From assembly GCA_013239625.1 (NCBI GenBank), contig MU053758.1:2108001-2172000 (forward strand): DNA of 64,000 nucleotides, read 5' to 3'. Under the pieces are notes generated by a model. It was not told the origin of the DNA. It did no database searches and was given only the letters and a program-made list of their open reading frames with translations. The DNA comes from Lama guanicoe (taxonomy: Eukaryota). This document shows, in pieces, positions 20,051 through 63,980 of this stretch. A program made the translations under genes and the position numbers. Each line of letters starts with the position of its first letter. Position 1 is the stretch's first letter.

Positions 20051-20299
20051 AGTGGAAATTTTTAGCACTTCTCAAGCTCCTATTATATATAGAAACTGTA
20101 TTACACACTCACTATACTTTATAAGGAGCAGGTATCATAGCCTACATTTTACAGGTGAAAGATAGAGGCACGTTGAAGCCCAGTGGGACACCGGCTAGGA
20201 AGTGGCCGGGCCACGACTTGACCCTGGGTCTGCCCAGGCTGCCTCCAAGGCAAGGGGTGAGGGAAATAATGCCAGTGCCACCCTGTACATCTGTCTCAC

Positions 20300-20419
20300 C
20301 TTGGCTTTCTCGAGCTGGGCTAATGCCTGGCGCTCTGCCTCCTTCCTTAAGGCTTCCCGGTCCTCCTCCAGAGACACGTCGGAGTCTGATGGACGGCTGG
20401 TGTAGGACTCTGCTGAGCC
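20300..20419 (-). CDS. CACNB1: CACNB1 exon 3 ([40 protein letters not shown])
   Basis: Conserved CaV-beta N-terminal helix; CAG/GTGAGA. Confidence 0.96.
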
Positions 20420-29353: not shown

Positions 29354-29746
<393 letters not shown>

Positions 29747-30316
29747 TAATAGTTATTACTAGAGTGGATGTTTTGTTTTACAGCTGTGTGAAGGATTTAT
29801 GAAAAGGTAGTTCAGGGACTTGGGAGTTGAAATGGCCAAAGAAATGATGAAGTGGGAAGACCTGGGGCCTCAGGCTTTAGTAAATTCCTGTTGGCATATA
29901 ATTATTCAGATGTCAGTCCTGCAGATAGCATTGATATGCCCACGTTACTTCCGTATAATACTGTTACAGGGGGAAAAAGTATTCAGTGACATTTGTTAAA
30001 GATGGTAAGGCAGACTTCATTCAGGATCACTGTAATAATTAATGGGGACCAGTACAATGGGATTTTTACAGTTGGGAAGGGAGATTGGGCTCAAATCCGA
30101 ATAGAGCCTGGGCAAGTGGGAATTTATAGTCAAGGAGAGTGGTATAGGAGAGTTAGTGGATAAAGAGAGAATGTGCTGTGAAACACCACTTTCTGCCATT
30201 TTTGAAAACAGAATATGAGCACTGTCTCTCTGGCCTGTCCTATTTGAACTCAACTGTGACTGGTGTTCTTGGGGCTAAGCCCCAGCTAACTGACCAGGTG
30301 CATTATGTTTTCCCAG

Positions 30317-30439
30317 GTCAGCAGATCCGGAAGCTGATCAAAGATGGGTTGATCATCCGAAAGCCTGTGACTGTCCATTCCCGGGCTCGATGCCGGAAAA
30401 ACACCTTAGCCCGCCGGAAGGGCAGGCATATGGGCATAG
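30317..30439 (+). CDS. RPL19: RPL19 exon 3 ([24 protein letters not shown]...HMGI)
   Basis: Matches eL19; CAG/GTAAGT. Confidence 0.97.
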
Positions 30440-31045
30440 GTAAGTGTGTTCTTCCCCTTTCTCTAAGACTTAGAGTAGGTGCTTATGTCTAGACTGAGAT
30501 ACATTCAGGATCCTTCTGTCTCGTCTTGAGCCCTTTTCGTTTCAAGTATTTCATGGTACTTGGTGTGTTTTCTCTCTGTGGCAATCAGAAAATTGGCACT
30601 AGTGTTGGAGTTGAAGGCATTGGTACGTTTATTGAGCACCTACGCTCTGTCAAGGATTCTAGTGTGGATACTTGGGAAATGTTCAGTAAATCCTTCAACC
30701 ACTTTCTAGGGTTAGAGTGATCTAGGGAGATGAAGGTCACACAACCTTTAAAAACCCCTTCCAGCTTACTCCTTCCAGAGCTTACTGCTCTGGTTCATGC
30801 CCTGTCATCTGCATTCTGCGTGAAGTGAACGGGGAGTAATTGCCTTGTTTGTGCTTCCTTAAAAATGAGGAAATGAAAGAAATTAAATACTTGGGATCAT
30901 CATCTAGAAAACGGAGATAATGCTACTTAAAATGAAGTACAACACTTGGCATATGACCCAGTGAATTATAAAGTGAGAAATTGGTAGCTATTGTTGTGAC
31001 CAACCACCTGGCTCTAGTAACCCAGACGCACTACAGTGGGCCTGA

Positions 31046-31183
<138 letters not shown>

Positions 31184-31362
31184 TAAGTACCTTGGGCCCA
31201 CCAAGACCTGTTGCTGCTTTGCACAAACTGTCTCATTGGCCTTGGGGAGGGAGGAAAGTAGTCCCTGCAGCAAGGGGAAGGGGGAAAGGAACCCTACGTG
31301 CTTAGGGACCTTGTATAGAGGAACAGATTCCAGGGGCCAACCTCTGTTGATCCCACAGCTGA

Positions 31363-31503
<141 letters not shown>

Positions 31504-38369: not shown

Positions 38370-38474
38370 TCAGATCTCGGTCAGGGCGTCGGCTGGCACC
38401 AGGCCCCGTTTCTTGCCACTGCTGACGCGGATGAAGCCGTCAGCATCCTTGGTCCTGCCCACGCCCACACAGAT
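38370..38474 (-). CDS. STAC2: STAC2 exon 11 ([34 protein letters not shown])
   Basis: End of second SH3 domain; TGA at 38370-38372. Confidence 0.95.
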
Positions 38475-39043
38475 CTGAGCCAGAGAGACACAGCTGAAGC
38501 CTGGCACTGCCTGCATCCCTGGCCCTGAGTCCTGCTGATGTCTCCCAGGGGGCCTATCCCAGGGGATAATGTGGGACCAGCATCAGATGTGGCTGAAACT
38601 GGGCTGATGGGAGCAGAACTCACGAGGGTACAAGGGGCAGCAGCCTGACCAGGCCATCAGCAGACACCAAGCAGCACTTTGGGGCTGACCTTTGAGAGCA
38701 GCTGGTCTATTGTACAGCGAGACTCCCATTTCATCCAGGAGGTAACAGGGAGAAAAGGACTTGCCCAAGGTTAACAGCTCAAAGGCAGAGCCAGCATTCA
38801 GACCCGAGCCTTTAGCTCCTCCCCCAACTGTCTCTAACATAACTCCGCCCCCTGCCAGTGGTGGCCACCAGCCCCAATTCCCAGCAGGAGATGACAGGAG
38901 GGCCCTGCAGTCCCACTGCTTCTAACCTGCCTTCCCTCCTGCTACCAGTCTGCAAGTATCCTTCTACAGCGCGCTTGCCCACACCCCTACCCACCTCTCT
39001 CCCACGCACCCCACTCCAGCCGCTGCAGGGCCCAGGCCCTCAC

Positions 39044-39181
39044 CTGGTTCTCCTTGAGGCTCATGTAGCCTTGTTCCTTGTTCCCGGAGAAGGGTTGGCA
39101 GCAGCGCCAAACGTTCTCTCCCGGCCTCACCCGCTGCACAAAATTGGCTGGGAAGAAGCCAACCCGGTCACCAATCTTGCC
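39044..39181 (-). CDS. STAC2: STAC2 exon 10 ([22 protein letters not shown]...LKENQ)
   Basis: SH3-1 end and SH3-2 start; CAG/GTGAGG. Confidence 0.95.
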
Positions 39182-39539
39182 CTGGGGATGAGGCCGGCAA
39201 TGAGCACCCGTGACACCCCAACCCCCACTGCTTTCTCTAGACCCAATGCCCTGGGAGCCAATGCCATCATCCTCCTGATCGTGGGCTCTGTCTTTCCGAG
39301 CCGCTAGTCCGGTGGCTTCTGGGCTGGGCAGGGCACAAGGTGGGCAGAGGGACAAGCCTGGCGGGGAGGGGCAAAGAGAGAGCAAGGCCTGAGGGGTGGG
39401 CCTAGGCCTGGCTAGGGCCAGTGGAGAAAGGAGAGGAGGTCTTTGGGGTCGGAGAGAAGGTGGGGCAGTGCCCTATGTGGGTGGGGGCTAGTGAGGTGCC
39501 TGCCACTCCCCACCCTTCGCTCCCACCCTGCCAAGTCAC

Positions 39540-39591
39540 CTTCCACCAGTCCTCGTTCGAGTCATCCACCAGCATGATCCGATCTCCAGGC
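39540..39591 (-). CDS. STAC2: STAC2 exon 9 (PGDRIMLVDDSNEDWWK)
   Basis: SH3 WW motif; CAG/GTGACT. Confidence 0.95.
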
Positions 39592-39977
39592 CTGGGAGGA
39601 GAGAGCTGGGGTAGCATATGGGGCAGGAGGGAGCTGCCCGCTCTGTATCCCAGTAGTCCTAGGCCCCCCCACCCCCTGCATGCCCCCCTCGGCTGGGGGA
39701 GGATCCTTGATGCCCTCGGAGGACCCTATGTGACCACAGGTGTGGCAGACACTCTCCAGGACAGAGGCTGGGCAGGGGACAGGAGACATGACATCAGTAC
39801 TAATCCCTCTTGGACTCTGACACTTCTGTCTCCTCTTTGGGCTCAGGAGCCTCAAGCATGCCAGGAAAAGGTTCATGAAGGTCCCCTTCACACTCATGTT
39901 CCAAGGTCTGGGAGCACAGAGCCTTGAGGTTGGAGCCAGGCAGCTGCCGGGTGGGGCTGGGCCACAGGAGGACTTAC

Positions 39978-40075
39978 TGCAAAGCCAGATCATTGTTCTC
40001 CTGGGGCAGAAACTTGTAGAGCGCGACGTAGGAGTACATGGGCCCCACATCCTTCCGTAGCGGGGGCCTGGGGGG
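39978..40075 (-). CDS. STAC2: STAC2 exon 8 ([32 protein letters not shown])
   Basis: SH3-1 start; CAG/GTAAGT. Confidence 0.93.
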
Positions 40076-40548
40076 CTGTGGGAAAGCTCTGGATCATTGA
40101 TGGGAGGGTGACACCTTTCTCACTCTCCCGCTGTCCCCTTGCCCTGACCTTGCCTACCCTGGGGGCTGGGAGGTGGGACACAGTGCTCTTGGGTCAATGA
40201 GAGCAAGAGGTCAGACTCTCCTATCTGCTGTGCTCACACGGCCCTGAAGGGACCGGGCAACGGACAGAGAAGGGTGATCCTCCTCTGCCCGCCACACCCT
40301 GGCACTGCCCACCCTTGGGGAAATCAGAGCTGTTGAAATAGACACTGGGTCAGTGGTGGCAGGAGTAATGCTCCTGCCTCCCTTGCCTACTCTCCCTGGC
40401 ACTGCCCATCCCTGTAGGCTGAGGGTAAATGAAGGAGCGGTGATACTCCTGCTCACCACACTCTCACCCACCTAGGGATCAGTGACAGGAAGAAGCGACA
40501 TCCCTTTCCCACCTGGCCTGTCAATGCTCGGTGCCAACATTGCCTCAC

Positions 40549-40610
40549 CTGCTGTCCAGGGCTCTTCTCCTCTGGTCCTGACCCTTCGCTCTCAGCCGGG
40601 GCTGTGAATA
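40549..40610 (-). CDS. STAC2: STAC2 exon 7 (VFTAPAESEGSGPEEKSPGQQ)
   Basis: Linker; CAG/GTGAGG; phases consistent. Confidence 0.9.
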
Positions 40611-40702
40611 CTGGAGATGGCAGGGTGGGGCCGGGGTGTGAGGCAGCGGGTAGCGGCCCGTGCTGTGTTCCATTCCTGCCCCTGGTCCCCAACCCCACTC
40701 AC

Positions 40703-40775
40703 CGCTGTCACCAGGGCACTCCTCTGAACTGCGGATGCTGCCTTCCCCATCCTCGGTCAGCTCATCCCGCTCGCT
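40703..40775 (-). CDS. STAC2: STAC2 exon 6 (SERDELTEDGEGSIRSSEECPGDS)
   Basis: Linker; CAG/GTGAGT. Confidence 0.9.
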
Positions 40776-40865
40776 CTGGGGACACAGAGAAGGGAGGGCT
40801 CAGACCCTTGACCCCCACCCTCAGAGACCCCTGCCCCCAAGGCTCCCCTTTGATGCCCAACATAC

Positions 40866-40978
40866 CAGGCTCTGTGTGGGGGACTCAGAGGTGCTGCTGA
40901 AGCTGGAGCGGTTCATCAGGGCCAAGGAGGTGCCATAGCGCAGGGTCTCATAGACAGGGTCCACCTTCCCGCTGGCCC
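40866..40978 (-). CDS. STAC2: STAC2 exon 5 ([25 protein letters not shown]...; U-motif)
   Basis: Conserved STAC KVDPVYE motif; CAG/GTATGT. Confidence 0.95.
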
Positions 40979-41806
40979 CTGCCAAATAGCCATGGTCAAG
41001 GCTGGACACCCAGCTGTCAGCCTGGCTCTGCCCTGAAGCCCTGTATCTCAGCCTTGGCTGCCCCGCTGGCTCCCCACCTCAGCCTAGCTGACCTCCGCCT
41101 CTCCCCTCACCTGCCCCTCCCAGGTCTTCTCATCACAGTGAGCGCTCCCTGTCCTCCCACGATGCACAAGCAGAAACCAGGAGCATCCTGGAACCCCCGC
41201 CCTCCTCACTGCCCATATTCACTCCATCACCTCATCCTACCTCCAAAACATGTCTAGAGTCTGCCCATTTCTCTCTATGTCCACTGCTACCAGCCTGGTC
41301 CAAGCTACTAAACTCTTTCTCGGCAATTGGCTTCCCAACTGGTCACCCTGCTTCCACTGCAGCCCTTCTAATCCATGCAGTAGCCAGAATGCTCTTGTCA
41401 AAATGCAAAAATTGACTTCAAAGTCAAAAAACACTCCTAGAATGGACCCCGAGCTCCTGTACCCATGGTCCCCTTTCACCCCTTCACTTTCACTGCCTCG
41501 ACTCCAGCCTTGTTTTCCTTTTTTTGACCCTCTGCCCCCTCCTCTCTGGCCTGCCTTCTGCCCACAGTGGTCTTCTCCAGATCCTCAGACTAATTCCCCA
41601 TCTTTCAAGTCTCTTGGATGCCTTCAATGGCTCTGTGGATTAGGCTGGTGCCTGCTTTATCCTCTCTTTATTTCCTTTCCTTCTGTTTCAGGCATTCATC
41701 GAACAATGATTCACTGATGATTTGTGTGATTATCTATTTCATGTCTAGTTCCCTTACTAGAACATGACCAGTGTCCCTGGCACTTAGTAGCTGCTCAGTA
41801 AAGTGT

Positions 41807-41882
41807 TGGATGGATGAATGGATGAATGGATGGATGGATAGATGGATGGATAGATGGATGGATGGATGAATGAATGAATGAA
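41807..41882. repeat. (GGAT/GAAT)n tetranucleotide repeat at the end of an L2 remnant
   Basis: Direct inspection. Confidence 0.9.
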
Positions 41883-42031
41883 CTCTACATACAGTACAGG
41901 AGCATCCAAAAAAGGGAAGTGGTAGCAATGCCAAGGGCGGGCAGTGCCAGCGTGACTCAGGTGCCCTTCTGTGGAGTACATGGGTCTCTCATCACATCGC
42001 AGTGGGATCAGAGGCAACGGTGGACACTCAC

Positions 42032-42122
42032 CCGTGGGTGAGGACTCTTTGCTTGTGGCACAGGCTGGTGGCGGATTATGCACCAGGAGAGGGGAGCTGA
42101 AGTTGCGGCGGAAGGAGGAGGA
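42032..42122 (-). CDS. STAC2: STAC2 exon 4 (SSSFRRNFSSPLLVHNPPPACATSKESSPT)
   Basis: FRRNFSSPLL motif; CAG/GTGAGT. Confidence 0.93.
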
Positions 42123-42301
42123 CTGTGGTAAGAGGGGCAGAGAGATGGCATGGGAGGTCACAGCACACTCTCTGAAAGCCTGGCCTTCCCGAAGCCCAAA
42201 TACCACCCCGCCTGCAGAACCAGCCTTCAGGGAGCACTCATTCTCCCACATGCCAGTGCTGGGAACACTCAGCCAGCCATCTCCGCATGATCCCCACTCA
42301 C

Positions 42302-42399
42302 CGTCTTGCCTGGGCATTGCTGGTGGGAGATCTCCTCGGAGCACCAGAGGTGGACGCTGGCTTTGCAAGTCTTACACCGCAAGCCCTGCTTGGAGTTTC
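42302..42399 (-). CDS. STAC2: STAC2 exon 3 ([33 protein letters not shown]1 domain)
   Basis: C1 Cys/His ligands; CAG/GTGAGT. Confidence 0.95.
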
Positions 42400-42762
42400 C
42401 TGGGAAGAATTTGTGTTCGGCAAGAGGGTTTGGTCAAGAGAGGCTACATCCAATGTCCAGGAGCAAAGAAGGCAGGTTGGGGTGCAGAGAAGCAAGGAGT
42501 TGAGCATCTTCATGCCAGCTGGGGGCCTGGCCTGATCCCCCACACGGTCAGAGTGGGAACTGGCCCTAAAGTCTGAGTTGTTAGTAAACACAGCAACACT
42601 GGGCCCCCACCCACCCCCAAGGGTGCTTGTGTGTCCACCCAGGGGGAGCGGCACAGTCAGGATTGGGGGCCCTGAAGTGTAAGAGCCCAATTTATCAGGC
42701 AGTTTTCCAGTCCACTCCCCATCCCCACTCTGGCCCCTCCCATTAGCACCCCAGGCACCTAC

Positions 42763-58772: not shown

Positions 58773-58805
<33 letters not shown>

Positions 58806-58810
58806 TGTGT
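58773..58810. repeat. (GT)n microsatellite
   Basis: Direct inspection. Confidence 0.95.
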
Positions 58811-59689
58811 TTAGGACATACTCTGGTTTTCCCTCTTCCCCCAGGGAGGCCCCCCAGAATCACAAAGCCTGGATAGGTAGGGTCACATGAGGCCAGGCCA
58901 CATCTTTAGAGCACAGTTTGGTATCTGTTTATACCAAACACAATAGTTGGGGTGGGGTGTGCAGGGAGCTGGGGCTGACTGTGTACAGTGACAACAGGGG
59001 CTGAGCCTGGCGGAGGAAGCCATCCCCCAGGCAGGCTGTATTTGTCCATAAACACAGTCCACTCCAGGCCCCAGGGCAGAGGAGGGGGCCATGAAAGCAG
59101 CCCAGCTAGAGTTCCTCTCCTTCCACCTCCCTGGGAGGCGGCACTCCCAGGCACACACACCCTTGTCCTCACAGGCACTCTCCCCCACTCTCCGAGTTGT
59201 TTCCACAGCAAGATGGACTATGTTCTGTAAACTCCAATCCCCTAGCCAGGTAGCCCCCAGTGACAGGACAGATGTCTGGCCATCACTGCACCTGTGTGTA
59301 TGTGGCGGGGAGGGTTAGAGGGGAGGGGAGAGGCCAGGGGGAGCAAAGCCCCTTTGTAGGTCCATGTGATGCAGCTTGTCCTGTCCCCTGGAGTGGTCAG
59401 GCTCCTGCCATGCAGTCATGTGAGGGGTCCAGCCTGTGGTCTCTGGGACTTTACATTGCTCATGGTTCTGGGGCCCATCATTTAGTCTGAAGGTGCCCCC
59501 TCATTGTTCCTGGGCCTGTTGGGTAATGGAGGGGGACGTGGATGTCCATCCCTGTGACTTTGTTTTGCTGCACCACCATGTCCCCTTAGAGTTAATGATT
59601 GGTGGGAGCCCTGGGGACATCCGATCTTGATTCCCCCCAAATTGGGCCGCCTGATAGGTCCTGAGTTTCCTAGAGCCCTGGCTGCTCAG

Positions 59690-59747
59690 CCAATAAGAGG
59701 CCGAGGGCTTTCCCCCACCCTTTTGTGGGTATATTTTTGTGTATAAA
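59690..59747 (+). promoter_or_regulatory. CCAAT + TATA core promoter of the CP2/LSF-family gene
   Basis: CCAAT 59690-59694 and TATAAA 59742-59747, about 95 nt before the ATG at 59839. Confidence 0.6.
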
Positions 59748-59838
59748 CCCTGCAGCCCCAGGTGGATGCAGTGGGTCCAGCCCAACCCAGTGCTGAGCTC
59801 TCTGCATGCGAAGCAGCTGGTCCTGCTCCCTTTCCAAG

Positions 59839-59921
59839 ATGCTGTTTTGGCACAACCAACAAGAGCACCTGTGGCCCAGCCCTGGGGAACTGTACCCGGG
59901 GCCGCCAAGCAGCTTGCTCAG
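59839..59921 (+). CDS. TFCP2L1-like (CP2/LSF family) gene, coding exon 1 (MLFWHNQQEHLWPSPGELYPGPPSSLL)
   Basis: aagATGc start; MLFWH..EH N-terminus like TFCP2L1; phase-2 AG/GTAAGG donor. Confidence 0.85.
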
Positions 59922-60413
59922 GTAAGGGTCAGATCCCCTTCCCCCAGCCCCCGAGAAAGCCCCTCATCTGAGTTGTGATGGACATGGTAGGCTCATCTGT
60001 TTCAAGCCAAGGGTTATGGGCTTCCTGCTCCTGGGTTCCTTTAAGGGGTGATCAAATGTACTTGGGGTTTAGTGGGTCCTGGGACATCTCAAAACACCCC
60101 GACCATCCACCCACTCAGGACACTTGGGTCAGGCAATTACTGGGTGTCAGGCAAGACCTGAAGTTGCAAAACAAGTAATTGATGGCAGATATTTGCAAGT
60201 GTCTACTAGTACCTGGGATTTGCACCTTTTAAGGAAGAGCTCCTGGAGGCCAGAGGAGCTAGATGTGGACCCACCTCTTAGGCCCCTGCGGTGCCTGCAG
60301 TGGCAAACTGTGGACTCCCTGGTAGAGGGAGGATCTGGCAGAAAGAGTCAAAGCTTCTCAGGGGATGGGGTGGACAGGGCAGAAAGCCAGCAGTGCCCTC
60401 CTTTCCCTGGCAG

Positions 60414-60565
60414 GGAGCCCTTGCCCTTGCCCTACCTGAAGCAGGAAGAGCTGCCCAGCATCCCCAGCGCAGAACCACCCTGCCCTGCGTTCCAGTATGT
60501 GCTCTGTGCAGCCACCTCGCCGGCTGTGAAGCAGCAGGAGGAGACCTTAACCTATTTGAACCAGG
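60414..60565 (+). CDS. TFCP2L1-like exon 2 ([14 protein letters not shown]...[25 protein letters not shown])
   Basis: CP2 domain signature; 152 nt; CAG/GTATGC. Confidence 0.93.
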
Positions 60566-60702
60566 GTATGCTGGACCTGGGGAAAAGAAGGGGCTAGTGG
60601 GGCAGCAAGTTCGGGAGGCTGGGCCCAGGGTGGGCTAGGGGTGACAAGCACTACCTCTGCTTCTCAGAATGGGGCTCCACACATCCCCTTAATCTCTCCC
60701 AG

Positions 60703-60767
60703 GCCAGTCCTATGAGGTACGAATGCTCTGCAACACCAAGCTGGGCTATGCCACCCGGCTGCTAAAG
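60703..60767 (+). CDS. TFCP2L1-like exon 3 (GQSYEVRMLCNTKLGYATRLLK)
   Basis: GQSYE motif; CAG/GTAGGT; frame preserved. Confidence 0.9.
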
Positions 60768-61522
60768 GTAGGTGCATCCCCTCCCAGAACCGGCAAAGGC
60801 TGGGTATGATTGTCCATCTGGGCAGGAAGCCAGGGTCATCACTGTGGTGTCACTGTCAAGCAGAATCCTCTCAAGTGCACCTTTTAATTTGATCTTCACA
60901 ACAGCTCAGTGGTGGGCAGGAATTGTTGAGGAAACAGGCACAGAGGGGTTGAGTATTTTCTCAAGAACACAGAGTCAGTAAGTAGCAGAACCAGAAATAC
61001 ATGTACATAGCATTATTCACATGCATGATTCCTTCTCTCTCTCTCTGTCTCAAAAAAAGTGTTTAGCTCTCATTCTTGGCCAGAAATTGTTCTATGAGCT
61101 AGAGATTCAGGGGCAAAGAGACAGATGTGGTTTCCTTCCTCAGGGGGCTTGCATTTTACTGAGTGAGACAAACATGTAATTATACAAATTATATGCAATT
61201 GCAAATTGATTTACAAATCACAAACTGATAAGTACTGCGAAGAGAACCAGGTAGAGTGACTAGAATGGGAAGGGATTAACTTCTCCATTTTACAGATGAT
61301 GAAACTGAGGCTGTTTCTCTGGGTTAATTCCTCAGTTTCAAGCTTGTGAGTGGCAGGTGGGCATCTGGACACAGATCCAGTGATTCTAAGTCTTTATACC
61401 CCTGGGGGTGGGAAGAAAGGTGGGGGACAGGGCAGAATGGTTGGCCCTGGGGCAGGTGGGACCTGGTTCCCAAATGTCCAGGTGCCCTCTGACCTGTGAG
61501 CCGCGCCCTCCTGCGCCCGCAG

Positions 61523-61628
61523 AGTGTGGTGCGTGTGGTGTTCCACGACCGGCGCCTGCAGTACACGGAACAGCAGCAGCTGGATGGGTGGAGGTGGAGC
61601 CGGCCCGGGGACCGCATCCTGGACATAG
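61523..61628 (+). CDS. TFCP2L1-like exon 4 ([35 protein letters not shown])
   Basis: CP2 DNA-binding domain; CAG/GTGAAC. Confidence 0.95.
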
Positions 61629-61736
61629 GTGAACGGGGAGGGACTGGGGACCCTTTAGGGCTACTTTCTGTCTTAGAAGCCCTTGTGGATGAGGAGGGCT
61701 GAGACTCGCTCCCTGCCTGCCACCCTGTGCCTGCAG

Positions 61737-61843
61737 ATGTGCCACTGTCTGTAGGAGTGATGGAACCCCAAGTGCTGCCCTCACAACTCAACACGGTGGA
61801 GTTTTACTGGGACCCGACCAAGAGGACCTCCCTCTTCCTGCAG
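61737..61843 (+). CDS. TFCP2L1-like exon 5 ([36 protein letters not shown])
   Basis: CP2 DNA-binding domain; CAG/GTGAGC. Confidence 0.95.
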
Positions 61844-61969
61844 GTGAGCTTGAAGCTGGGACAGGGAGGAGGCTGGAGGTCAGATGGGGGTGGCAGCATT
61901 CTGGTGTACTAGAAAAGTAAGGTGAGTTTGGGTAGGGGTGAGGGGACAATAAGAATGAATTACTTCCAG

Positions 61970-63000
61970 AAAGCACCTTGAGGAAAAAAGATGGATAAAT
62001 GTTTATCAAATCTTACCATAGGGAAGGACTTATTAAACATTAAAGTAATGGAAGAAACCTTAAAATGGAGGACAGAATTTAGCTTCATAAAAAGTAACAG
62101 CCTGCAATACATAGGCAAAATGAAAAGGAGAATCAAATGGGAAAAATAGTTGCCACATTTGACATATAATATGATATTCAAAATATATAAAAAGTTCTCA
62201 TATATCAGTAAGAAAAGATAGATGAACACTCAGGACAAAAATGGGCAAAGGATAGGAGCAATTTATAAAGAAGGATATAAATTGCCAATAAATGTAGACA
62301 GTTCAAACTAATAAACTCCAAATGCTAATTAAAATTACATATTTTTTTTTTTGACTGGCAAAGACTTTTCAAAAACCACTATTGGTAAGGTTTGGAGAAA
62401 GAGACACCCTCATATCCTGAGAACACAAATTGGTGCACCCATTCTGTGGGTACGTGGCACTTCGGCAAATCTTACCGAATGTAATGTTCATACTCATTTA
62501 CCCAGTAGTTCCACTTCAAGAAATCTATCCTATAGCTGTGTCTAATAAGTACACAAGGATATATTTACCAGCTATTCAAGCATCATTTCAAGCTATTCAG
62601 CATCATTTTGCATATTAAAAGATTTTTTAAAAATCCAAATGTCCATCAGAAGAGGACTGACTTTGAAATAAGTTTTAGTGCGGGTTTACAATGGAAACTG
62701 GGTAGCCATTAAAATGATGTCTCTGAGAAATATTTCATGACCAGAGAAACAGCTTTCTTATAAGGCAGAATACAAACCTGTATTTAACATTTGATTTCTA
62801 TTTTGTACAAATAAAAGTGTGTGTATACACAAATTTTTTTCTTCTTGCCCAGAGAAAAGGTAGAAATAATACTTGAATGTTAACAGTACTATCTCTGAGA
62901 GGTGGAGTGATGGGAGATGCCTGTATTCTTCTTTATGCTTGTTCAATGTTCTCCGTATTTTCTGTGTTGAAAATATTTCCTTCTTATAATCAAACAATAT
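61970..63000 (+). mobile_element. Old L1 (L1M) 3' fragment in intron 5 of the CP2-like gene
   Basis: AT-rich, L1 ORF2-end/3'UTR-like motifs (aaaaatgggcaaagga, ccaaatgtccatca, gtagccattaaaa); approximate. Confidence 0.65.
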
Positions 63001-63250
63001 TGTCAAAAGTCTCCTGTAAGTCCCTTTTTTGAGTGCCCACCATCGTCTAAGCATCAGGACTAGGAGCCGAACAGATGTGGCACCATTTCAGTTTCACCAC
63101 TTCCTAGCACAGACCTTGCCCAGGTCACATAATCTCTGTGAGCCTTGGTTTCTCTCCCTTGAAGTTTGGACCTTTAGCTGTTCCTCTTATGATTGTGGTG
63201 GTGGGGTGGGGTATAGTGGGCGTGCCAGTCAGCAAGGCTTCTTGGAACAG

Positions 63251-63428
63251 ACTGCTAGATATTAGCAAATGAAATACAGGACACTCAGTTAAATTTGAAT
63301 TTTAGATAAAGGATTTTTTAGTGTATCTTCCATGTGATACTTGGGACATACTTAGACTAAAAAATTATTTGTTGCTTATCAGAAATTTAGATTTAACTGG
63401 GCATCCTGCATTTTAACTGGCAACCCTA
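63251..63428. mobile_element. MER53-like palindromic MITE
   Basis: ttagcaaatgaaatacaggacactcagttaaatttgaatt...aaatttagatttaactgggcatcctgcattttaactggcaaccct; internal inverted symmetry. Confidence 0.75.
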
Positions 63429-63827
63429 TCCTAGAATGGGCTGTATTGGCTCAGGTGTGAACAGGGAGAGCTTTCCCAGCAGAGGGCGCTAGGGAAAGCC
63501 ATGAAGGTGTATTGGGGGCCATGATTAGGCTGGCTGGGTGGTTCAGTGGGTTCACTGATGGGACAGAGAGAACAGCCGTGCAGAAAGGCTTGACTTGGCT
63601 CTTTAAGGTGCTTGAACTTTGCTTCTCATCCCGTAACCTTGGGGAGCACTGGAGGATTTTGAATAAGGGAAAGAACCCAATAAAATTACACTTTAAGAAT
63701 AGACACTGGTTGAGGAATGGAAAGTTGCCGCGATTAGCGGCTGACAGGTGATAGGCAGGTAACCAGTTTCAGGTGAAATCCCTTGCATGTGGATGGGACC
63801 TGGAGTCATCCTACTTTTCCATCTCAG

Positions 63828-63980
63828 GTTCACTGCATCAGCACTGAGTTCACTCCTCGGAAAAAAGGTGGAGAGAAAGGTGTCCCCTTCCGCCTCCAGA
63901 TCGACACTTTCAAGCCCAGTGACAAGGAACTTCCGCCCGAGCACCTGCATTCGGCTGGCTGCCTCATCAAGGTGTTTAAG
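63828..63980 (+). CDS. TFCP2L1-like exon 6 ([29 protein letters not shown]...[13 protein letters not shown]); gene continues off-window
   Basis: CP2 DNA-binding domain; 153 nt; CAG/GTACAG. Confidence 0.95.

Follow-up and report, generated by a model that had tools for sequence, protein, structure and literature searches.

A 64,000-nucleotide stretch of the Lama guanicoe genome (assembly GCA_013239625.1, contig MU053758.1, here C1600, positions 2108001-2172000; this whole stretch is called the window) carries near its end the first exons of a transcription factor gene. Based on its exon structure, its predicted protein and its place in the family tree, we take it to be an intact and compact 15-exon gene and the fourth LSF/CP2 member of the Grainyhead/CP2 family, distinct from TFCP2, UBP1 and TFCP2L1 and with orthologues across the tetrapods (we put the probability of this reading at roughly 0.75). 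X4 is our working name, both for the new gene and for the clade of its orthologues. A sequence-only reading of the window had already proposed a fourth LSF/CP2 gene that is not TFCP2L1, and this proposal is upheld by a separate TFCP2L1 locus in the same genome and by a tree which puts X4 outside the TFCP2L1 clade.

A more far-reaching account, to which we give about even odds, is that X4 is an ohnolog from the early vertebrate genome duplications (2R), belonging to a 17q12-type paralogon, selected in all tetrapod classes, with a remodelled DNA-contact loop and targets of its own, and lost independently in catarrhines and Glires.

Exon structure, domains and constraint

The coding exons of X4, in the window and past its end, are the following:

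59839-59921, + strand: coding exon 1, 83 nucleotides, with the conserved MLFWH start; donor gtaagg
60414-60565, + strand: coding exon 2, 152 nucleotides, opening the CP2 DNA-binding domain (...LTYLNQ); donor gtatgc; Pfam CP2 E 7.2e-5
60703-60767, + strand: coding exon 3, 65 nucleotides; donor gtaggt
61523-61628, + strand: coding exon 4, 106 nucleotides, core of the DNA-binding domain (...PGDRILDI); donor gtgaac; Pfam CP2 E 1.3e-4
61737-61843, + strand: coding exon 5, 107 nucleotides, DNA-binding domain; donor gtgagc
63828-63980, + strand: coding exon 6, 153 nucleotides, DNA-binding domain with the L10 DNA-contact loop (RKKGGEKG); donor gtacag; Pfam CP2 E 2.6e-12
C1600:2172203-2175743, + strand: exons 7-15, past the window end

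In exons 1-6 all acceptors are AG and all donors GT, and splicing yields 666 nucleotides, or 222 codons with zero stops, an open frame which is far beyond chance. The six GT-AG exons and the 222-codon frame of the sequence-only reading are thereby borne out, and all the peptide stretches it quoted are present. Taken one by one, and with a Pfam CP2 cut-off of 25 bits, exon 6 scores 47 bits, exons 2 and 4 remain just under the cut-off (22.6 and 21.8 bits), and exons 1, 3 and 5 give no match when scanned singly.

The same frame is found in a public gene model, since residues 12-233 of P0012 (the Vicugna pacos 'transcription factor CP2-like protein 1 isoform X1', an NCBI prediction) match 100% of the 222 spliced residues. 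An exact-translation search of the Lama guanicoe assembly itself (2.05 Gb in 55,231 contigs; the own genome, in what follows) gave a 14-exon, all GT-AG model at C1600:2167806-2175150 which reproduces P0012 fully (489 residues and a stop). In the canonical form of X4, the exon-14 donor is joined to a fifteenth exon (C1600:2175706-2175743), giving a protein of 477 residues from the MLFWH methionine, the final 12 of which are identical to Camelus ferus P0011. P0012 and one minke whale isoform read instead through the exon-14 donor (C1600:2175110-2175150), which replaces the conserved last exon; this ending may be a real isoform or an artefact of the model. The whole gene thus spans about 7.9 kb, with 15 coding exons and 14 GT-AG introns, and is open throughout. 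The window holds only the first six exons, but the gene is complete, since exons 7-15 continue in the own assembly beyond the window end, and there the downstream KGADRK and SAM exons, which had been predicted from the window, exist and are intact.

Upstream of exon 1, an alternative start and two possible promoter elements can be placed:

59690-59694, + strand: CCAAT motif, a possible promoter element by motif match only; the sole CCAAT in 59601-59845, 52 nucleotides 5' of the TATAAA
59742-59747, + strand: TATAAA motif, a possible TATA box by motif match only; the sole TATAAA in 59601-59845
59806-59838, + strand: upstream in-frame ATG with 11 codons, the start used in the NCBI isoform X1 model (P0012)

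The ATG at 59806 stands in a weak context (T at -3, C at +4), and for the one at 59839 the base at -3 is A; the MLFWH N-terminus that begins at the latter, which is the start chosen in the sequence-only reading, is conserved in the X4 clade and in TFCP2L1. The TATAAA lies 59 nucleotides from the first of these ATGs and 92 from the second, in upstream DNA which is poor in CpG (observed/expected 0.11 over 58801-59900).

Three Pfam domains follow one another along P0012: CP2 (PF04516) at residues 64-251 (E 3.7e-51, 174 bits), SAM_3 (PF18016) at residues 322-380 (E 1.2e-17; also found in the axolotl and platypus orthologues) and GRHL1_C (PF25416), the C-terminal dimerisation domain, at residues 388-476 (E 4.6e-12). 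X4 residues 64-276 align to the solved DNA-binding domain of TFCP2 (8y7v) with E 4.7e-104, and based on this match the fold and the DNA-binding surface of X4 are almost certainly as in TFCP2. GRHL1-3 belong to the same fold family in their DNA-binding domains (5mr7 and 5mpf, E 1e-21 to 1e-23); unlike them, X4 has the SAM-like domain, which according to a family phylogeny is the mark of the LSF branch and not of the GRH branch (PMC2873413). An AlphaFold2 model of P0011 built on 26 sequences is weak (mean predicted local distance difference test score, pLDDT, 51.6), with a secondary structure compatible with the three domains.

Across 26 orthologues, from the axolotl to mammals, identity peaks in the domains and many columns are invariant, the DNA-contact motifs included. 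Between alpaca and platypus, X4 is 87% identical in the DNA-binding domain, 79% in the SAM domain and 53% in the C-terminal part, and between alpaca and axolotl the corresponding values are 73%, 66% and 48%. Three X4 proteins from read assemblies of other species add indirect evidence of expression: P0027 (312 residues on a 988-nucleotide contig, 92% identical to the window's 222 residues), P0006 (311 residues on a 1362-nucleotide contig) and P0295 (481 residues on a 1926-nucleotide contig, in a 90% cluster that includes a skink protein). Since these contigs are too short for the introns, they reflect spliced RNA or, less likely, a retrocopy. A scan of metagenomes for DNA of X4 orthologues gave 43 loci, of which 6 were classed and none could be assigned to X4 (for five the best match was a classical paralog and one was a short near-tie); the remaining 37 have 35-70% identity in the best segment.

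These data bear on the possibility that X4, in this species or generally, is an unprocessed copy which is decaying or has no function and whose frame is simply still open. Such a state would fit the faster evolution of X4 compared with its paralogs, the NCBI isoform X1 that reads through a splice donor, and the appearance of decay in some primates, where the Saimiri protein is without 13 invariant residues and the Saguinus one has a long branch. Nevertheless, the frame stays open through the 15 exons, every intron is of the GT-AG type, the canonical C-terminal end is preserved, the 26 orthologues share many invariant columns with identity peaking in the domains, and other species supply the intron-free assembled contigs just described, and we therefore regard a functionless copy as very improbable.

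Relation to TFCP2L1, TFCP2 and UBP1

When the own genome was searched in six frames with the cat X4 orthologue as query, 29 exon-by-exon matches were obtained on four contigs: C1600, which carries X4, and C12516, C1007 and C8676. The exons on C12516 are 76-100% identical per matched piece to Camelus bactrianus TFCP2L1 (P0341), those on C8676 are 70-100% identical per matched piece to sheep TFCP2 (P0428), and the best match of C1007 is a cichlid protein named UBP1. The protein stitched from the C12516 pieces groups with camel TFCP2L1 at 100/100, in the clade to which mouse CRTR-1 and Pan TFCP2L1 belong (for the tree, all own-genome paralog rows were stitched from tblastn pieces, with gaps written as X). 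A separate TFCP2L1, whose existence the sequence-only reading had marked as something to confirm, is therefore present in the assembly. A CLASP_N profile search of the own genome returned one match, located elsewhere, and is uninformative as to whether CLASP1 adjoins TFCP2L1.

The idea that X4 is TFCP2L1 itself, relocated in this lineage, draws on annotation pipelines that call X4 'transcription factor CP2-like protein 1'. It is already refuted, and keeps practically no weight: the same genome has its own TFCP2L1 locus on C12516, X4 is just 51% identical overall to camel TFCP2L1, and the platypus likewise carries both genes (P0118 and P0132).

The three paralog loci also show that X4 shares the intron structure of the family. 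Of its 14 intron junctions, 13 lie at most three residues from an alignment break in TFCP2L1, 11 in TFCP2 and 10 in UBP1. A processed retrocopy, which the earlier reading had dismissed on account of the introns, is thus ruled out by 14 GT-AG introns at positions common to the paralogs.

TFCP2L1 (CRTR-1 / LBP-9) resembles X4 in the three-domain layout, in the MLFWH N-terminus and in the 13 of 14 shared intron positions. The two proteins differ in sequence, however, their DNA-binding domains being 75% and their C-terminal domains 36% identical; in addition, X4 has an extra 7-residue segment at the N-terminus, carries Lys or Asn for the His of the L10 loop and, in placentals, Leu for the Gln of the recognition helix. 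Along the path from alpaca to turtle in our most careful tree, X4 evolves about three times faster than TFCP2L1, and TFCP2L1 reaches the sharks whereas X4 was found in tetrapods only. UBP1 (LBP-1a) has the same kind of gene neighbourhood as X4, namely an FBXL2-type gene in tail-to-tail orientation and a STAC-family gene in linkage, but it has its separate locus on C1007, groups with TFCP2 in the careful tree and, in its fish form, is 53% identical to X4. With TFCP2 (LSF / CP2c), X4 shares 55% identity overall; TFCP2 is near-invariant in amniotes (93% between sheep and chicken), compared with 66% between alpaca and eagle for X4.

For the phylogeny, sequences were gathered with an exon-6 search (the best 120 of 1163 matches), as 50%-identity representatives (the best 150 of 1646), and with a Saimiri orthologue and a turtle TFCP2L1 as further queries; thirty representatives were named via their clusters. 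The X4 clade received full support both in a FastTree tree of 121 rows and in a quick tree of 69 rows. For a careful maximum-likelihood tree of 53 rows, 20 long-branched, partial or redundant rows were dropped, a second Pelobates UBP1 isoform was swapped in and the three stitched own-genome paralogs were added, with a tunicate, a brachiopod, a gastropod and one read-assembly sequence as outgroup rows. In this tree X4 forms a clade of 20 rows with 100/100 support and a stem length of 0.48, made up of one axolotl, two squamates, one crocodile, two turtles, three birds, two monotremes, one marsupial and eight placentals. The TFCP2L1 clade, which reaches from sharks to mammals (mouse CRTR-1, Pan and the own-genome C12516 protein; support 86/87), is its sister at 98/91, and UBP1, TFCP2 and hagfish come together at 91/84. 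An approximately unbiased (AU) test rejects X4 and tetrapod TFCP2L1 as one clade (p 0.0135).

X4 is accordingly not nested among TFCP2L1 orthologues, and its own supported clade from axolotl to placentals marks it as a separate lineage whose age is at least that of the tetrapods, in line with the great age suggested for it from the window. Candidates for a fish X4 did not survive. The FastTree tree had the teleost proteins P0154 and P0157 as the sister of X4, but they lie inside TFCP2L1 with better sampling, and P0266, a tarpon protein named 'UBP1-like', belongs with UBP1. In the careful tree, the closest partner of alpaca X4 is the tenrec Echinops (98/87), within the minke whale group, contrary to the species tree, which may be an effect of the isoforms compared.

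Gene neighbourhood and origin

The genes around X4 were identified from domain matches, in the window and, for the last entry, beyond its end:

20294-20419, - strand: CACNB-type exon (N-terminal domain of a voltage-gated calcium-channel beta subunit), one of four genome matches
29354-31503, + strand: intron-containing RPL19, with Ribosomal_L19e N- and C-terminal Pfam domains over four open reading frame pieces
38373-42433, - strand: STAC-family gene (STAC2), upstream of X4 and head-to-head with it, with C1, STAC2_u1 and SH3 parts; 5' exons, expected between 42434 and 59800, were not found
39405-39725 and 38373-38582, - strand: STAC SH3 exons
41787-42371 and 40824-41078, - strand: STAC2_u1, a STAC-specific Pfam domain
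42272-42433, - strand: STAC C1 exon
C1600:2186138-2186500, - strand: FBXL2-like exon, 10.4 kb past the last X4 exon and tail-to-tail with X4

Among solved structures, the SH3 exon matches STAC2 best (6b26/6b28), above STAC and STAC3, and the FBXL2-like open reading frame matches residues 315-392 of the solved FBXL2 (6o60_C) with E 1e-45. The STAC2 neighbour and the FBXL20 expected downstream from the window alone are thus both accounted for, the former by a STAC2-type SH3 match and the latter by an FBXL2-like gene which we infer to be FBXL20. The series CACNB, RPL19, STAC2, X4 and FBXL2-like agrees with the human order at 17q12, CACNB1-RPL19-STAC2-FBXL20.

Parts of this neighbourhood recur on the contigs of two paralogs. 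Only one further place in the genome matches the FBXL2-like exon strongly, C1007:230085-230309 (+ strand), which is some 6 kb away from the last exon found for UBP1 (itself on the - strand), and both FBXL2-type genes are thus tail-to-tail with a CP2-family gene, X4 in one case and UBP1 in the other. The STAC-specific Pfam domain is found in the own genome only in the window (40704-40979, - strand) and on C1007, 1.83 Mb from UBP1, and another of the four matches to the CACNB N-terminal domain lies on C8676, 1.66 Mb from TFCP2. The mirrored FBXL2-type neighbours and the linked STAC and CACNB genes, together with the common intron positions, indicate that a chromosomal block was duplicated, and not a single gene or an mRNA. 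On the simplest reading, this block duplication would date to the early vertebrate genome duplications. Since X4 was found only in tetrapods, a 2R origin would entail losses in sharks, in ray-finned and perhaps in lobe-finned fishes, or else that X4 there is unsampled.

Several points weigh against the picture of X4 as an old and functional fourth member. Its sister group varies between trees (teleost sequences in the FastTree tree, UBP1 at 84 in the quick tree and TFCP2L1 in the careful one), the AU test leaves UBP1 as sister unrejected (p 0.091) and its groups were chosen after the tree was seen. The long stem of 0.48 and an evolution several times faster than that of the paralogs (78% identity in the DNA-binding domain between alpaca and turtle, against 96% between camel and turtle for TFCP2L1) invite long-branch artefacts and fit relaxed constraint. 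No X4 from outside the tetrapods was found among the proteins retrieved, by protein searches that covered no fish genome. Additionally, the evidence of constraint is identity at the protein level, transcript support comes indirectly from other species, and DNA binding and oligomerisation are attributed to X4 by homology alone.

Many of these points would also be expected if X4 were real but younger, namely a duplicate of TFCP2L1 or UBP1 from the tetrapod stem, pushed out of its parent clade by fast evolution: the restriction to tetrapods, the long stem and low alpaca-turtle identity, the deep placement that differs between trees and the UBP1 sister relationship left standing by the AU test are all on its side. 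We nevertheless consider a younger origin unlikely. The AU test rejects the union of X4 with tetrapod TFCP2L1, and a late copy of a single gene would need to have landed in the mirrored FBXL2/STAC position. A late copy of the block would make FBXL20 and STAC2 tetrapod-only too, and both probably occur more widely.

An F-box-like Pfam search of the own genome was uninformative for this comparison, with none of its 59 listed matches on C1600 or C1007. Six of its matches lie about 12-34 kb apart at C1236:1403846-1487238 (- strand), five of them with identical scores, which suggests a recent tandem array.

Distribution across tetrapods and DNA-contact residues

Among the named matches, X4 occurs in a wide range of placentals (carnivores, bats, cetartiodactyls, perissodactyls, pangolin, moles, afrotherians, lemurs, two New World monkeys, tree shrew and colugos) and, outside them, in marsupials, monotremes, birds, turtles, crocodile, squamates and axolotl. 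With the Saimiri orthologue as query, the best match beyond its own cluster is a whale protein with 81% identity, and no catarrhine, rodent or lagomorph X4 is found among the 120 matches listed, which is an absence from the protein database and not a proof of loss. Catarrhines, rodents and lagomorphs do appear for TFCP2L1 and TFCP2 in the search with turtle TFCP2L1. The sequence-only reading had regarded X4 as retained in this lineage and lost elsewhere; loss in other groups is indeed possible, but retention is the rule in tetrapods and not a speciality of this lineage. In the Saimiri model (P0100), 13 invariant residues of the DNA-binding domain are missing and the C-terminus is aberrant, and the Saguinus model (P0131) has a branch of 0.7; judged from these sequences, loss or decay of X4 may be beginning in anthropoid primates.

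Besides the TFCP2L1-type name, some pipelines call X4 'upstream-binding protein 1-like'. Public annotation already contains X4, misleadingly named TFCP2L1; the gene model exists, and what it lacks is recognition and study. Of the earlier description as largely uncharacterised, the part that holds is that X4 is apparently unstudied. A review (PMC6213935) and a human family table (PMC6585022) give the LSF-type genes as three (TFCP2, TFCP2L1 and UBP1), and a 2010 family phylogeny, in the part available, leaves the vertebrate paralogs untreated (PMC2873413). No description of a fourth LSF-type paralog was found in the full-text literature searched, which included few subscription journals. X4 was probably overlooked because it is apparently missing from humans and from the main laboratory mammals.

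If the gene is what we propose, results from mouse and human need not transfer to pig, cattle, dog, chicken or axolotl, and 'TFCP2L1' hits in RNA-seq or proteomic data from those species may be X4. The LSF/CP2 family would also be a clean case of four genes that arose by early vertebrate duplication, with later losses in particular lineages. Redundancy among TFCP2, TFCP2L1 and UBP1 is a recognised obstacle in interpreting knock-outs, according to the review (PMC6213935). Should X4 be a 2R ohnolog, it would be an unrecognised partner or competitor in this redundancy in non-rodent animals, and its losses would explain why a transcription factor of livestock, pets, birds and amphibians went unstudied.

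The likely mode of action of X4 can be approached through GRHL1. In the GRHL1-DNA structure, bases are contacted by Gly387 and by two arginines of the recognition helix, Arg427 and Arg430, and the backbone or clamp contacts include Lys386, Lys389 and Lys428 (PMC5829564). The alignment shows that X4 retains the equivalents of Arg427, Lys428, Lys386, Gly387 and Lys389, so that the recognition arginine is common to X4 and GRHL1, as well as the GADRK helix and the R-K...G-E-K-G loop; the position of Arg430 is Lys in X4, as in all LSF-type proteins. By homology, X4 would be a sequence-specific DNA-binding factor that reads its sites with the GADRK recognition helix and the L10 loop of an immunoglobulin-like CP2 domain. 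Its SAM-like and C-terminal domains would allow it to form homo- or hetero-oligomers, the latter possibly with its paralogs.

Two positions of this surface set X4 apart from the classical paralogs. In the motif counts, sequences were classed by their best BLAST match to four references, five low-margin X4 calls were excluded, and the classical sets comprise only the matches of the turtle TFCP2L1 search and six named representatives. The His of the L10 loop is present in all 120 classical sequences that show the motif (79 TFCP2L1, 40 TFCP2 and one UBP1). At the same site X4 has Lys in 108, Asn in 49, His in one and Gly in one of the 159 sequences showing the motif, which is missing from 9 of the 168 X4 sequences. 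Between the two helix contacts, 116 of 117 classical sequences have Gln; of the 141 X4 sequences showing this motif, 95 have Leu at that place, 45 have Gln and one has His. The 26-sequence alignment of named species suggests that this Leu is the placental state. With the L10-loop His replaced throughout the clade (by Asn, and by Lys in placentals) and the Gln-to-Leu change in placentals, the affinity or the site preference has probably shifted, and the changed L10-loop residue could serve as a testable handle on how this fold reads DNA.

A smaller change is found in the same domain at the end of exon 3 (60750-60767), where alpaca and Camelus ferus X4 are without three residues that are present in every other X4 of the 26-sequence alignment. 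The loss keeps the frame in both camelids and affects a loop (...LG.AT / RLLK) where the DNA-binding domain is variable; the loop after LG is also shorter in camelid X4 than in TFCP2.

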